28,808 nt of DNA, taken from Escherichia coli (GTDB lineage Bacteria > Pseudomonadota > Gammaproteobacteria > Enterobacterales > Enterobacteriaceae). Under the pieces are notes generated by a model. It was not told the origin of the DNA, searched no databases, and saw nothing but the letters and a program-made list of their open reading frames with translations. The translations under genes and the position numbers were made by a program. Of the stretch, positions 1 to 7,109 are shown piece after piece; within the stretch, counting starts at the first letter, position 1, and each line of letters opens with the position of its first letter. The stretch lies in the NCBI RefSeq assembly GCF_003334315.1, contig NZ_QOWR01000061.1, one strand, 5' to 3'.

Positions 1-357
1 GTCGGGGCTAAATCGCGCCAGCGCTGGCTGTTTTACGCGTATGACAGGCTCCGGAAGACGGTTGTTGCGCACGTATTCGGTGAACGCACTATGGCGACGC
101 TGGGGCGTCTTATGAGCCTGCTGTCACCCTTTGACGTGGTGATATGGATGACGGATGGCTGGCCGCTGTATGAATCCCGCCTGAAGGGAAAGCTGCACGT
201 AATCAGCAAGCGATATACGCAGCGAATTGAGCGGCATAACCTGAATCTGAGGCAGCACCTGGCACGGCTGGGACGGAAGTCGCTGTCGTTCTCAAAATCG
301 GTGGAGCTGCATGACAAAGTCATCGGGCATTATCTGAACATAAAACACTATCAATAA
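1..357 (+). CDS. insB: IS1 transposase InsB, C-terminal fragment (5' end outside window)
   Basis: ORF 91..357 plus open upstream frame from base 1; recognised InsB C-terminal sequence; stop TAA at 355..357. Confidence 0.85.
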
Positions 358-372
358 GTTGGAGTCATTACC
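1..372 (+). mobile_element. IS1-family insertion sequence, partial (3' ~370 bp including right terminal inverted repeat; window starts inside the element)
   Basis: Bases 1..357 translate in frame to the C-terminus of IS1 transposase InsB (...[37 protein letters not shown]...NIKHYQ*). Element ends with the IS1 terminal sequence AAGTTGGAGTCATTACC at 372. An inverted copy lies at 28437..28808 (ORF translations identical). Confidence 0.9.
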
Positions 373-859
373 GGCTGCCGGTATCGAACAAATAAAACAT
401 TTTCTGGCGACGGCATTTATTCGCCAACAGCCGGAGCGTTTTTTCTCTGCCCCCGGAAGTTTTCATTATTCGAATGTACGCGGTGAAAGCTGGCAACATA
501 TTACCCGGCAAATTTGTGCGCAATTAGTCGCACAACACCATATTACCGCCGATGAAGCACAACGCATCATCGCCCGCGAAGGCGAAGGTGAAAACCTGAT
601 TGTTAATCGCCTCGCCATCCCACATTGCTGGAGCGAACAGGAGCGACGTTTTCGTGGATTTTTTATTACCCTCGCCCAACCAGTTGAGGTGAATAACGAA
701 GTCATTAACCATGTCTTGATCGCCTGCGCCGCCGCCGATGCGCGTCATGAGCTAAAAATATTTAGCTATCTGGCAAGCATATTGTGTCAGCATCCGGCGG
801 AGATTATTGCCGGGTTAACAGGATATGAGGCATTTATGGAGTTACTTCACAAGGGGTGA
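373..859 (+). pseudogene. frvR: frvR 3' remnant: C-terminal PTS EIIA-type domain of the Frv operon regulator; upstream part replaced by IS1
   Basis: ORF 359..859 starts inside the IS1 end (TTG) and runs in frame into host DNA. Translation has an EIIA-type-2-like motif (NRLAIPHCW) and resembles the FrvR C-terminus. Position next to yiiG matches K-12 gene order. Confidence 0.6.
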
Positions 860-862
860 ACT

Positions 863-887
863 GTGTCGGATGCGCCGCATCCGACAC
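863..887. terminator. GC-rich perfect palindrome between convergent frvR' and yiiG; probable bidirectional terminator or REP-like hairpin
   Basis: GTGTCGGATGCG-C-CGCATCCGACAC, 12-bp arms, sits between the 3' ends of two convergent genes. Confidence 0.4.
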
Positions 888-908
888 TGCATTTATCATC
901 AAAAACGT

Positions 909-1964
909 TTAACGCAGGCTATTATAGTCATCAACCATTTCGTTGTACTCGCGTAATGCTCTCGGGAAAGAGTCTTCGACCATCCAGCTTGAGTTTGCGT
1001 CCTGAAGTTGCTCTTTATCCCAGTCAGAGTACGGGACTTTATCTCTGATGCGGCGAACGTATTTTTTAGCCTCGAGTTGATACTGGCCTGCCGAATTAAT
1101 AAACGAGAAATTCATGCCGCCTTTATCCGCTTCTTTGGCCTGCGCCACTAGCGTTTCCAGTTCAGACACTTTCTTCATTGCCGCTTCTGCATCAAACTTA
1201 TCTTGCGATATCAGGTTATTAATTTGTTTCGCTGAAATCATGACTGCCAGAGAGTAGTAGTGGAATGTTTTCCCTTCTCTTTCTTCAATATTTTTCAGTT
1301 CCGCAAGCTGACGCTTATCATTAATTTCCTGAATCGCCGCATGATAAGATTCGGCTACAGGTTCAAAGGCTTCCAGATTTTTTAAGAATGTCTGGTGCAG
1401 CGTTTTCCCTTTCGCAAACGCATCGTCTTTATAATTTTCCTGGGTGTAATATTTATCCATTTCGTTAATGGTATTACCCAACGCCACGGCAGCATCGATA
1501 TAACTCACCGCCACGCCATCAATTGGTTGCAGCGCAGGCGTTAACGCCACAGCACTTTTTACGCCTTTTTCACACTCAGCGAGGTTGGATTCACTAATGC
1601 CGTAGATGCCATAAACAGTACGCTCTTCACCGGTAGGCCCCTGTTTAAAATCTTTCAGCCAGTCAGCATAACGCGCCAGACTGCGCTGTACCGGGATCTG
1701 TAACTTGTTGTAGCACTTGATATAGACATCCATTTTTTCGTCGAAAACCGCTTGTTCATCGACCACCGGTTGCGCAGGTGTTTCAGGTTTAGCTTCTGCT
1801 TTTGCAACGGGAGCTTCAGTAGGTTTCGCTTCAGGAGCTGGTGCGGCAGGTTGACTATTGGCAGGCGGGAGCGTTTCTGTTTCGGCTTTTTTATCATCAC
1901 AACCCGTCAGACCGAGGGACATGATGGCGACTATAATAGCGGAAGATAATAAATTCCTTTTCAT
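909..1964 (-). CDS. yiiG: DUF3829-family lipoprotein YiiG
   Basis: 351-aa ORF. N-terminal signal peptide with lipobox L-T-G-C (MKRNLLSSAIIVAIMSLGLTGC), followed by a Pro/Ala/Lys-rich low-complexity linker and a helical domain. Synteny with fdhD. Confidence 0.8.
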   Translation of the reverse strand: MKRNLLSSAIIVAIMSLGLTGCDDKKAETETLPPANSQPAAPAPEAKPTEAPVAKAEAKPETPAQPVVDEQAVFDEKMDVYIKCYNKLQIPVQRSLARYADWLKDFKQGPTGEERTVYGIYGISESNLAECEKGVKSAVALTPALQPIDGVAVSYIDAAVALGNTINEMDKYYTQENYKDDAFAKGKTLHQTFLKNLEAFEPVAESYHAAIQEINDKRQLAELKNIEEREGKTFHYYSLAVMISAKQINNLISQDKFDAEAAMKKVSELETLVAQAKEADKGGMNFSFINSAGQYQLEAKKYVRRIRDKVPYSDWDKEQLQDANSSWMVEDSFPRALREYNEMVDDYNSLR

Positions 1965-2073
1965 TTAATTGCCTTATAAATATATAGATAAGAGAGTGAA
2001 CATAATAAATGAAAAAAGAAAACGCCACTACACGCATTTTGTTTATAAATAAAATAATAAAATTCACGAAATG

Positions 2074-2112
2074 AATAAGTCCTGCAATTTAATATATTTC
2101 GCAGGACTTATT
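2074..2112 (-). terminator. Rho-independent terminator downstream of fdhD
   Basis: Inverted repeat AATAAGTCCTGC / GCAGGACTTATT (12-bp stem, 15-nt loop) starting a few nt after the fdhD stop; on the minus strand it is followed by a U-rich tract (complement of 2041..2073). Confidence 0.55.
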
Positions 2113-2116
2113 TTAA

Positions 2117-2950
2117 TTAATTGCTCAAACGCTGCGGATGGGTATAAACCGTTGCCCGACCCGGTTTACAAAAACCTACCAGTGTCAGATTACAGCGCTC
2201 AGCCACTTCTACAGCAAGCGTGGTCGCGGCAGACACCGCAAACAAAATCTCTACGCCGCACATCGCCGACTTTTGCACCATTTCATAACTGGCACGACTG
2301 GAAACCAGTACCGCACCTTGCTGCCAGCTTTCCCCTTCTTGTGACCGGCGGCCTAACAGTTTGTCCAGCGCCACATGGCGACCCACGTCTTCATGCCCGC
2401 CGACCAGTTCGCCAGATGGCAACATCCAGGCAGCGGCGTGAGTACAACCAGTCAGTTGCCCCACTGGCTGAAAATCGTTGAGATGACGTAATGCATCATC
2501 CAGTTTGTTGAGATCAAACGTCTGGGTGAACGGTAGCGGCTGCACCGGTTTTCCGATGTCATTAAGTTGCTCCACGCCGCATACGCCACAGCCCGTACGT
2601 CCCGCCAGCGCCCGGCGGCGCTCCTTCAACCCCATAAAGCGGCGGCTGGAAAGCTCAATTTGTACTTCAAGACCATTACAGGAAGGAACGACATCCATGC
2701 CGAAGATATCGCGCGGACTTTCGATAATCCCCTCGGAAAGCGAAAAACCGAGCGCAAAGTACTCAAGGTCTTTGGGCGACGCCATCATCACCACATGCGA
2801 AATGCCGTTGTAGACCAGCGCAACGGGAACTTCTTCCGCGACCTCATCTAACCGTGGGTGTTGTAAATCATCACGCCGCCATAACTCAATTTGACGAACA
2901 CCTGTGATATTTGTCACATTTTCGATTTCTTTTCGCTGTGTTTTTTTCAC
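2117..2950 (-). CDS. fdhD: Formate dehydrogenase accessory sulfurtransferase FdhD
   Basis: 277-aa ORF recognised as FdhD-family; divergently placed upstream of fdoG as in E. coli. Confidence 0.85.
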
Positions 2951-3143
2951 TTTCTCTTAACCAGATAAGAACACACACACCAACATTATGGTATTCTGTT
3001 ACAAACCCTTCCTGGATGGAGGGAAATTGAGCCAATTCTGGACCTTTGCGGCCCCTTCCGCAAAGAAAAATAACTCCCACTCCCTGCACACGCAGCAAGC
3101 GAATGTAAATGGGACGTGACAATGTCGAAACAAGGAGCAATCC

Positions 3144-6100
3144 ATGCAGGTCAGCAGAAGGCAGTTCTTTAAGATCTGCGCTGGCGGTATGGCAGGCACC
3201 ACGGCAGCGGCACTGGGTTTTGCACCCAGCGTAGCACTCGCGGAAACCCGGCAGTATAAACTGCTGCGCACCCGCGAAACCCGTAATACCTGCACCTATT
3301 GTTCCGTAGGCTGTGGGCTGTTGATGTACAGCCTCGGTGACGGAGCAAAAAACGCCAAAGCATCTATCTTCCATATCGAAGGCGATCCGGATCACCCGGT
3401 CAACCGCGGTGCACTTTGTCCGAAAGGCGCTGGCCTGGTGGATTTCATCCACTCCGAAAGCCGTCTGAAGTTTCCGGAATACCGTGCGCCAGGTTCTGAT
3501 AAATGGCAGCAAATCAGTTGGGAAGAGGCGTTTGATCGCATCGCCAAACTGATGAAAGAAGACCGCGATGCTAACTACATTGCGCAAAACGCCGAAGGCG
3601 TGACTGTTAACCGCTGGCTCTCCACCGGGATGCTGTGTGCTTCCGCGTCGAGTAACGAAACCGGCTATTTAACGCAAAAATTCTCCCGCGCGCTGGGTAT
3701 GCTCGCGGTCGACAACCAGGCGCGTGTCTGACATGGACCAACGGTAGCAAGTCTTGCTCCAACATTTGGTCGCGGTGCGATGACCAACCACTGGGTCGAC
3801 ATCAAGAACGCCAACCTCGTCGTGGTGATGGGCGGTAACGCCGCTGAAGCTCACCCGGTCGGGTTCCGCTGGGCGATGGAAGCCAAAATTCACAACGGCG
3901 CGAAGCTGATTGTGATCGATCCTCGCTTTACGCGTACGGCGGCGGTAGCTGACTACTATGCCCCTATTCGTTCCGGTACTGACATTGCTTTCCTGTCAGG
4001 CGTATTGCTGTACCTGCTGAACAATGAAAAATTCAACCGCGAATACACCGAAGCCTATACCAACGCCAGCCTGATCGTGCGTGAGGATTACGGCTTTGAA
4101 GATGGCCTGTTCACCGGCTACGACGCGGAAAAACGCAAGTACGATAAATCCTCCTGGACTTATGAACTGGACGAAAACGGCTTCGCCAAACGCGATACCA
4201 CGCTGCAACATCCGCGCTGCGTGTGGAACTTGCTGAAACAGCACGTTTCCCGCTACACGCCAGATGTGGTTGAAAACATCTGTGGTACGCCAAAAGACGC
4301 GTTCCTGAAAGTCTGCGAATACATCGCAGAAACCAGTGCTCACGATAAAACTGCCTCGTTCCTGTATGCCCTCGGCTGGACGCAACACTCCGTTGGTGCG
4401 CAAAACATTCGTACGATGGCGATGATCCAGCTGCTGCTCGGCAATATGGGGATGGCAGGCGGCGGCGTTAACGCCCTGCGCGGTCACTCCAATATTCAGG
4501 GGCTGACGGACCTGGGGCTGCTGTCGCAGAGCCTGCCAGGTTACATGACGCTGCCAAGCGAGAAGCAGACCGATCTGCAAACCTACCTTACCGCCAACAC
4601 GCCAAAACCGCTGCTGGAAGGCCAGGTAAACTACTGGGGCAACTACCCGAAATTCTTCGTCTCTATGATGAAGGCCTTCTTTGGTGATAAAGCGACGGCG
4701 GAAAATAGCTGGGGCTTTGACTGGTTGCCGAAGTGGGATAAAGGCTACGACGTCCTGCAATACTTCGAGATGATGAAAGAGGGCAAGGTCAATGGCTATA
4801 TCTGCCAGGGCTTTAACCCTGTTGCCTCATTCCCGAACAAAAACAAAGTGATCGGTTGTCTGTCGAAACTGAAGTTCCTCGTCACCATCGACCCACTGAA
4901 CACTGAAACCTCTAACTTCTGGCAGAACCACGGTGAGCTGAACGAAGTTGACTCGTCGAAGATCCAGACCGAAGTGTTCCGTCTGCCATCGACCTGCTTC
5001 GCGGAAGAGAACGGTTCTATCGTTAACTCAGGTCGCTGGTTACAGTGGCACTGGAAAGGTGCGGACGCCCCGGGGATTGCGCTGACTGACGGCGAGATCC
5101 TCTCCGGTATCTTCCTGCGCTTGCGCAAGATGTATGCCGAACAGGGTGGCGCGAACCCGGACCAGGTGCTGAACATGACATGGAACTACGCCATTCCGCA
5201 TGAGCCATCTTCAGAAGAAGTGGCGATGGAGAGCAACGGTAAGGCGCTGGCCGATATTACCGATCCGGCAACCGGTGCGGTTATCGTCAAGAAAGGCCAA
5301 CAACTTAGTTCGTTCGCCCAATTGCGCGATGACGGTACAACCTCCTGTGGCTGCTGGATTTTCGCCGGTAGCTGGACGCCGGAAGGCAACCAGATGGCAC
5401 GCCGTGATAACGCCGATCCGTCTGGCCTCGGTAACACGCTGGGCTGGGCATGGGCATGGCCGCTTAACCGCCGCATTCTGTATAACCGCGCCTCCGCAGA
5501 TCCGCAGGGTAACCCGTGGGATCCGAAGCGTCAGTTGCTGAAATGGGACGGCACTAAGTGGACCGGCTGGGATATTCCGGACTACAGCGCAGCGCCTCCG
5601 GGTAGCGGCGTCGGGCCGTTTATCATGCAGCAGGAAGGCATGGGGCGTCTGTTTGCCCTCGATAAGATGGCGGAAGGTCCGTTCCCGGAACACTACGAGC
5701 CGTTTGAAACGCCGCTGGGAACTAACCCGCTGCATCCAAACGTTATCTCGAACCCGGCTGCACGTATCTTTAAAGACGACGCCGAAGCATTGGGTAAAGC
5801 CGATAAGTTCCCGTATGTCGGAACCACCTATCGTCTGACCGAGCACTTCCACTACTGGACCAAACACGCGCTGTTGAACGCGATTTTGCAGCCAGAGCAG
5901 TTTGTGGAAATCGGGGAGTCGCTGGCGAATAAACTTGGCATTGCCCAGGGCGATACCGTGAAAGTCTCCTCCAACCGTGGCTATATCAAAGCCAAAGCGG
6001 TGGTGACCAAACGTATTCGCACGCTGAAAGCGAACGGCAAAGATATCGATACCATCGGTATTCCGATTCACTGGGGCTATGAAGGCGTAGCTAAAAAAGG

Positions 6101-6194
6101 CTTTATTGCCAATACTTTAACGCCATTCGTTGGTGATGCGAACACGCAGACGCCGGAGTTTAAGTCCTTCCTTGTGAATGTGGAAAAGGTGTAA
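3144..6194 (+). CDS. fdoG: Formate dehydrogenase-O catalytic subunit (molybdopterin, selenocysteine-containing); in-frame UGA at 3729..3731 read as Sec
   Basis: Six-frame ORFs 3144..3731 and 3780..6194 are in the same frame, separated only by TGA. N-terminus has a Tat motif (SRRQFFK). Sequence around the UGA reads ...QARV-U-HGPTVASLAPTFGRGAMTNHW..., typical of Sec formate dehydrogenases. SD AGGAG lies 6 nt before the ATG. Confidence 0.9.
3732..3772 (+). promoter_or_regulatory. SECIS-like mRNA hairpin directing selenocysteine insertion at the fdoG UGA
   Basis: Immediately 3' of UGA: lower stem GACCA(3736..3740)/TGGTC(3767..3771) and upper stem AGCAA/TTGCT (3746..3758) with apical loop GUC, resembling the bacterial SECIS arrangement. 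Confidence 0.55.
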
Positions 6195-6206
6195 CGGAGA
6201 CGACAT

Positions 6207-7109
6207 ATGGCTTATCAATCTCAAGATATCATTCGTCGTTCCGCGACTAACGGTCTGACCCCCGCGCCTCAGGCGCGGGACTTCCAGGAAGAAGTGGCGA
6301 AACTCATCGACGTTACCACCTGTATCGGCTGTAAAGCCTGTCAGGTGGCGTGTTCAGAGTGGAACGACATTCGCGATACCGTCGGCAATAACATTGGGGT
6401 GTACGACAACCCCAATGATTTAAGCGCCAAATCGTGGACGGTAATGCGCTTCTCGGAAGTGGAGCAGAACGACAAACTGGAATGGCTGATCCGCAAAGAC
6501 GGCTGTATGCACTGTTCCGATCCAGGCTGCCTGAAAGCGTGCCCGGCGGAAGGTGCAATTATTCAGTATGCCAACGGTATCGTCGACTTCCAGTCCGAGC
6601 AGTGCATTGGCTGCGGTTATTGCATTGCGGGCTGTCCGTTCGACATTCCGCGCCTCAACCCGGAAGACAACCGCGTCTACAAATGTACGCTGTGCGTTGA
6701 CCGCGTGGTGGTTGGGCAAGAACCAGCCTGCGTGAAGACCTGCCCAACGGGCGCGATTCACTTCGGTACGAAAGAGTCGATGAAAACGCTGGCGAGCGAG
6801 CGCGTTGCTGAGCTGAAAACCCGCGGTTACGACAATGCGGGTCTGTACGATCCGGCAGGCGTCGGTGGTACACACGTCATGTACGTGCTGCACCATGCTG
6901 ACAAGCCAAATCTGTATCATGGCTTGCCGGAGAACCCGGAAATCAGCGAAACCGTGAAATTCTGGAAAGGCATCTGGAAACCGCTCGCGGCTGTTGGCTT
7001 TGCGGCTACCTTTGCGGCCAGTATCTTCCACTACGTGGGTGTCGGTCCGAACCGTGCGGATGAGGAAGAGAATAATCTGCACGAAGAGAAAGACGAGGAG
7101 CGCAAATGA
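6207..7109 (+). CDS. fdoH: Formate dehydrogenase-O iron-sulfur subunit
   Basis: 300-aa ORF with four ferredoxin-type Cys clusters ([58 protein letters not shown]) and a C-terminal hydrophobic anchor. Confidence 0.9.

Follow-up and report, generated by a model that had tools for sequence, protein, structure and literature searches.

Behind the end of an IS1 element, a contig of Escherichia coli (NZ_QOWR01000061.1) carries a piece of frvR, and this raises the question of how the piece arose, what became of the rest of the gene and of the frv operon to which it belongs, and whether what is left could still be made into a protein. By the window we mean the whole stretch of 28,808 nucleotides that was analysed. 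It begins within IS1, of which 372 nt are present, and its first part contains the following features:

1-372, plus strand: the 3' 372 nt of IS1, comprising the C-terminal part of InsB in frame 1 and the right terminal inverted repeat
373-381, plus strand: right-hand copy of the 9-bp target site, GGCTGCCGG, equal to frvR nt 1263-1271
373-859, plus strand: frvR 3' remnant, made up of the third base of codon 421, codons 422-582 and the TGA at 857-859
863-887, plus strand: hairpin with an 11-bp stem just past the frvR stop (RNA fold -22.4 kcal/mol, z -3.45)

The original prediction held that IS1 had truncated frvR and left about 160 codons in frame with the IS1 terminus. Comparison with K-12, where frvR has 1749 nt (582 codons plus stop), agrees with this account throughout. 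IS1 ends at 372, and 373-859 corresponds to frvR nt 1263-1749 at 100% identity with 0 mismatches; the first base of the remnant matches K-12 locus position L009:16475 and thus lies at nt 1263 of 1749, not near a gene start. Complete codons number 161 of 582 (422-582), and the reading frame of the remnant continues without a stop through 10 codons of IS1, with TTG at 359 as the sole start. FrvR is the putative regulator of the fructose-like PTS operon frvABXR, and the remnant is a fragment rather than a member of its family (NCBIfam NF007366): its 295 bits over profile positions 426-586 fall short of the 426 set as the full-length cut-off, and the N-terminal HTH, which Pfam places in full-length FrvR as HTH_11 at residues 5-60, is not found downstream of IS1. 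The K-12 gene order is frvA-frvB-frvX-frvR, with frvR last and convergent with yiiG. The hairpin at 863-887, which has the same sequence in K-12, sits between these two convergent genes and is likely the native terminator, kept in the window.

The boundary between IS1 and frvR can be placed to the base. The stop TAA at 355-357 closes the C-terminal ORF of InsB (the frame-1 translation is InsB-like), window 350-372 terminates in ...AAGTTGGAGTCATTACC, and 372 is the last base of the IS1 right inverted repeat (...GGAGTCATTACC). The element was recognised as IS1 by its insB reading frame together with the terminal inverted repeat GGTAATGACTCCAACTTATTGAT (outer strand), and the annotated IS1 of E. 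coli HZ13 (L002:5702-6073) is 100% identical to window 1-372. The orientation of insAB is the same as that of frvR, with the right inverted repeat adjoining the remnant. The 9-mer GGCTGCCGG has a single occurrence in the whole window, and the 30-mers covering both junctions are CATTACGGCTGCCGGGGTGATGCTGCC and GAGTCATTACCGGCTGCCGGTATCG. A junction search found the frvR-IS1 junction of the window in 0 of 5426 complete RefSeq E. coli genomes.

BLAST starts the frvR match at 365 and not at 373, because the 7 nt TCATTAC, which in intact frvR lie directly 5' of the 9-bp target (K-12 L009:16468-16474), are shared with the IS1 terminus TCATTACC (window 365-372), with a one-base offset. This match may be due to chance, or it may reflect a preference of IS1 for end-like sites; IS1 reportedly tends to insert near sequences like its own ends. 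Microhomology-mediated joining through the 7-nt TCATTAC was considered and rejected, since recombination within the homology would not give the complete terminus TCATTACC followed by GGCTG that the window retains. An assembly artefact, namely a false join at the repeat, would go well with the fact that the window stops at exactly 372 nt of IS1 at both ends, as is typical for the boundary of a collapsed-repeat contig. However, 11 independent contigs, one of them a finished chromosome, share the junction, and a matching left junction with the 9-bp duplication was found, so that an artefact appears hardly conceivable.

The original prediction had pointed to the other side of this IS1 copy for a check. 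That side can be read in other assemblies, where it is either frvR nt 1-1271 or rhaR, but not in the window itself, which ends inside IS1. As a test for a simple insertion, the predicted upstream product was looked up exactly in public assemblies. This product, FrvR(1-424) followed by VMLPTY (six codons read from the IS1 left end) and then a stop, 430 aa in all, had an exact match in 3 contigs. In contig L026 (GCA_958430825.1), positions 1-3271 show 100% identity to K-12 from frvB through frvX into frvR, as far as nt 1271 of frvR, after which GGTGATGCTGCCAACTTACTGAT, the IS1 left end, follows directly; L026:3263-3271 reads GGCTGCCGG, immediately before the IS1 left end GGTGATGCTGCC. Since the left flank of L026 ends with GGCTGCCGG and the right flank of the window starts with it, the two together form the canonical 9-bp IS1 duplication. 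A target duplication within the 8-9 bp sought is thus present at the population level, its two junctions coming from different assemblies. The locus resembles a simple IS1 disruption with 9-bp target duplication in that a complete IS1 end abuts the target and the duplication of GGCTGCCGG can be reconstructed, and it differs in that the left and right junctions are known here from separate assemblies and not from one molecule. Look-ups with minimal flanks, in which more assemblies were listed, found both junctions in no single assembly. In this simple-insertion state, hereafter state (a), a 430-codon HTH-bearing ORF remains directly behind frvABX and the EIIA-like domain is lost; the regulator has been split in two, and its tail is not the only part left.

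A second state, (b), is found in CV839-15, a porcine ETEC with a finished chromosome, CP024978.1 (PMC5824013), which a product look-up in public assemblies returned as the one complete genome in which the right junction is identical. Its gene order is sodA, rhaT, rhaR' (the 3' 621 nt), IS1, frvR', yiiG. The IS1 is full-length (768 bp, L003:9247-10014), its flanks AACGGAAGC and GGCTGCCGG are unlike, with no target duplication, and K-12 L009:6195-16474 is missing. The 10,280 bp (10.28 kb) lost comprise 5' rhaR, rhaS, rhaBAD, rhaM, frvABX and frvR nt 1-1262. With a single IS, no direct repeat and the adjacent DNA lost, this structure is the signature of an IS1-adjacent deletion. Replicative deletions by IS1 after which no direct repeats flank the IS are established (review PMC9330008), and CV839-15 resembles them in having one IS1 between rhaR' and frvR' and 10.28 kb missing; the deletion is seen in CV839-15, whereas the window breaks off within its IS1. 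The same product would be expected from recombination between a pair of co-directional IS1 copies. The rhaR-IS1 junction of CV839-15 occurred in 0 of 5426 complete RefSeq E. coli genomes, and looking up the truncated RhaR ORF by exact match was uninformative, as frameshifted rhaR alleles elsewhere yield the same 199-aa product. Further IS1 copies lie nearby in CV839-15 (L003 5480-6249 and 19462-20230); an IS1 in kdgT has a 9-bp duplication (K-12 L009:3197-3205), and an IS1 between yiiE and yiiD is absent from the window.

These two states bear on the proposal that the DNA-binding part of the regulator had been lost and the frv operon thereby uncoupled. The HTH is indeed absent downstream of IS1, but an HTH-bearing ORF remains in state (a), and, as CV839-15 lacks frvABX, state (b) has no operon left to uncouple. 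Uncoupling of the operon from its regulator is established in neither state.

How the two states are related, and which of them this genome has, can be approached through the flanking sequence. The CV839-15-type contigs L003, L005 and L006 have no mismatch to the window over 292-1184, and a divergence of about 1.2% starts at 1185, inside yiiG, while three genomes of other lineages (W2-5, EC24 and 14EC033) have 11-13 differing sites in the 487-nt remnant. Since the CV839-15 type carries the K-12 frvR allele and 11-13 differences are found elsewhere, the junction is most simply identical by descent. It would most simply have arisen once, on a K-12-type frvR allele, and then have been recombined onto a different background. 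In yiiG (window 1185-1827) there is a haplotype switch relative to the CV839-15-type contigs, with a 15-nt indel at 1813-1827 (YiiG of 351 vs 346 aa), and this switch indicates a recombination breakpoint between 860 and 1185.

Since the window ends inside IS1, its own state, (a) or (b), is not readable from it. Window 365-6460 has 99.97% identity to K-12, the flanks of L004 and L007 are 100% identical to the window, and the assemblies closest to it (L004, L007 and L008) also break inside IS1. State (a) is favoured for this genome because the flanks of the window and the left-junction contigs are both K-12-like, and we consider it probable, with moderate confidence, that a simple insertion lies behind the IS1 in which the window ends. 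Alternatively, the genome might have the deletion seen in CV839-15, with the left end of IS1 abutting rhaR, and frvABX, rhaSBADM and 5' frvR absent. That structure is the one present in the sole complete genome that shares this right junction exactly; of the 11 junction contigs, at least 3 (L003, L005, L006) are of the CV839-15 haplotype, as are probably four more of 9.6-9.8 kb, judged on size alone, and a comparable IS1 deletion ending in frvR arose independently in HZ13. The flank of the window, however, is K-12-like and 100% identical to L004 and L007, whereas the CV839-15 type differs from 1185 on, and the reciprocal simple-insertion junction is present on a 100% K-12-like background, which makes the deletion state possible but rather doubtful for this genome. 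If it were true, nothing of the frv locus would survive except the remnant, and a rhamnose-negative strain would be expected.

The explanation that we propose, and in which as a whole we have high confidence, is therefore one of a dead frvR 3' fragment from an IS1 insertion, with one junction origin and two states. IS1 would have transposed into the 9-bp target GGCTGCCGG at frvR nt 1263-1271 and left the dead fragment at 373-859. The junction would have a single origin on a K-12-type frvR allele, and its original state (a) would keep frvABX and the 430-codon frvR 5' ORF. State (b) would be derived from it, an IS1-adjacent deletion of 10.28 kb having brought the left end of IS1 against rhaR; this deletion would have removed the frv operon and most of the rhamnose genes.

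The fragment itself encodes a recognisable domain:

473-790, plus strand: core of a PTS EIIA type-2-like domain (Pfam PF00359), remnant residues 34-139
614-631, plus strand: AIPHCW motif, with the His codon at 623-625 (FrvR His505, remnant His84)

The Pfam match of the remnant to PF00359 (PTS_EIIA_2) has an E-value of 1.8e-14 and spans model positions 11-121 of 144, and in full-length FrvR the match lies at 455-560, corresponding to remnant residues 34-139. As 33 residues precede the match and 22 follow it, the entire EIIA-like module is kept, and the remnant can be described as about 23 linker residues plus a complete EIIA-2-like domain with its conserved His. These results confirm that only the C-terminal EIIA-like domain lies downstream of IS1, HTH_11 being at 5-60 of the full-length protein. 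They also support the retention of the putative phosphorylatable-His motif, in that AIPHCW aligns with AIPHGK of E. coli PtsN (EIIA-Ntr, PDB 1A6J), in accordance with the A-[LIV]-P-H pattern of PF00359, and FrvR His505, i.e. remnant His84, falls on PtsN His73, the established phospho-site. The pairwise similarity is remote (E 0.19), and the AIPHCW stretch falls inside the significant Pfam match. PtsN shares with the remnant the PF00359 domain and the AIPH motif; it is a stand-alone EIIA-2 protein, whereas the EIIA-like domain of FrvR is the C-terminal module of a larger regulator. A phmmer search of the remnant against PDB returned nothing at E<=0.01; at E<=10, matches to HIV protease were dismissed as chance, and PtsN alone was meaningful. 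BLASTP did not align the remnant with FrvA. AlphaFold2 run on the remnant as a single sequence produced an all-helix model with pLDDT 40, which is unusable and was set aside. In the literature library searched, no functional study of FrvR was found.

A complete domain in an open frame raises the possibility, also put forward in the original prediction, that a fusion ORF is expressed. The ORF in question is the following:

359-859, plus strand: IS1-frvR hybrid ORF of 166 codons, with a TTG start inside the IS1 inverted repeat

Such a short hybrid ORF does exist, and gene callers report the 166-aa product in 11 public contigs, but the signals that expression would call for are lacking. A scan of window 1-1100 gave no sigma-70-like promoter site. 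IS1 can form a hybrid promoter from an outward -35 in its inverted repeat and a -10 box in the flank, for which proper spacing is needed (PMC8764528). With a -35 to -10 distance of 16-18 nt as the criterion, the only arrangement to discuss is an outward TTGGAG at 359-364, separated by 17 nt from TATCGA at 382-387, with 3/6 matches in each hexamer, which does not amount to an IS1-generated hybrid promoter. Nor is there a usable Shine-Dalgarno sequence for TTG 359, as TAAG abuts the TTG with zero spacing. Since it is without a promoter or ribosome-binding site of its own, the frvR remnant is, from its sequence, probably silent.

Expression could otherwise come about if transcription of insAB read through into the remnant and translation reinitiated at the TTG, giving a stand-alone EIIA-like protein active in PTS phosphotransfer or regulation. 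Read-through is geometrically possible, as insAB and the hybrid ORF are co-directional, TTG 359 lies only 1 nt past the InsB stop TAA at 355-357, the EIIA-2-like domain is complete and still has its conserved His, and stand-alone EIIA-2 proteins such as PtsN exist. On the other hand, no promoter-like site is present and the IS1 -35 opposite TATCGA forms no usable hybrid promoter, the start codon is a TTG with no Shine-Dalgarno sequence, and, as a matter of general knowledge, read-through from insAB is expected to be weak, translation of the InsB frame requires a -1 frameshift, which is rare, and IS1 has a strong polar effect. Being identical to K-12, the remnant bears no signature of selection in either direction. 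We thus regard expression of a functional EIIA-like protein as very unlikely, and translation of the hybrid ORF by termination-reinitiation coupled to InsB or InsAB' as more improbable still. If such reinitiation did take place, the level of the free EIIA-like domain would follow IS1 transposase expression, and the domain could take phosphate away from the PTS or pass signals to it.

The reading of 373-859 as a silent leftover can be set beside other IS1 events in frvR. Independent simple insertions of the same class as the disruption in the window are present in VTB97420v (about nt 1090), W2-5 (about nt 1220) and EC24 (about nt 810); in all three, PGAP annotates frvR as two partial pseudogenes, the frvR tails appearing as partial 'PTS sugar transporter subunit IIA' pseudogenes. 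HZ13 has lost 4.07 kb, between the start of frvA and frvR nt 1117, in a deletion analogous to that of CV839-15, and 14EC033 has a complex IS1 arrangement at frvR, which brings the RefSeq E. coli genomes besides the window to five (three simple insertions and two deletions or complex arrangements). This repeated and independent disruption of frvR, a cryptic and uncharacterised regulator, by IS1 fits a dispensable gene.

At least six distinct IS1 junctions, that of the window included, lie within about 500 bp in the 3' half of frvR (L002, L022, L023, L024, L025). Their clustering may point to a local IS1 hot spot, or simply to a dispensable gene. An apparent bias of IS1 in frvR towards the same orientation was rejected as an ascertainment artefact, since the search joins same-strand pieces only. 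In E. coli PI12 (NZ_CP074005.1, L021 7040-7870), rhaR is cut 1 nt from the rhaR junction of CV839-15; the IS1 has the opposite orientation, its other end joins the yiiG-fdhD intergenic region, and rhaS through yiiG is deleted. The breakpoints in PI12 and CV839-15 thus reflect two independent IS1 events at adjacent rhaR nucleotides.

The remainder of the window ends as it begins. A second IS1 copy, at 28437-28808, repeats window 1-372 exactly as its reverse complement; the right inverted repeat of this copy adjoins yihL at a point 12 nt within the 5' end of that gene (K-12 L028:28209; K-12 yihL is at 27511-28221 on the minus strand). Inverted IS1 copies, each broken off after 372 nt, thereby enclose a unique 28-kb segment, and the window has the look of a contig whose ends fall in a collapsed repeat. 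The inverted pair allows inversion by IS1-IS1 recombination. The yihL-IS1 junction was found in 0 of 5426 complete RefSeq E. coli genomes, and looking up the remnant ORF of yihL led to a typA-yihL locus that is intact. Between the two IS1 copies, the ORFs at 3144-3731 and 3780-6194 are one gene, 3144-6194, for the alpha subunit of formate dehydrogenase-O (3051 nt, as in K-12, where the record annotates it as fdnG); the in-frame TGA at 3729-3731, codon 196, is the known selenocysteine codon and no pseudogene stop. The gap between yihS and yihR (window 18461-18489) measures about 28 nt, compared with about 100 nt in K-12 (L028:18165-18265), and the sulfoquinovose cluster yihV-yihR, in the surrounding 12-19 kb, is the most K-12-divergent part of the window.

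In summary, 373-859 is, judged by its letters, an ordinary insertion-sequence pseudogene remnant of a known kind, without sign of expression, and its importance beyond correct annotation is little. The 166-codon ORF that gene callers report as 'PTS EIIA' is a piece of a pseudogene and does not belong in a tally of PTS components, and a contig that ends inside an IS does not reveal the DNA beyond its other side. The locus illustrates clearly how a single IS1 insertion allele can occur in two states, of which the 10.3-kb deletion state, with its rhamnose genes removed, would predict a rhamnose-negative phenotype.
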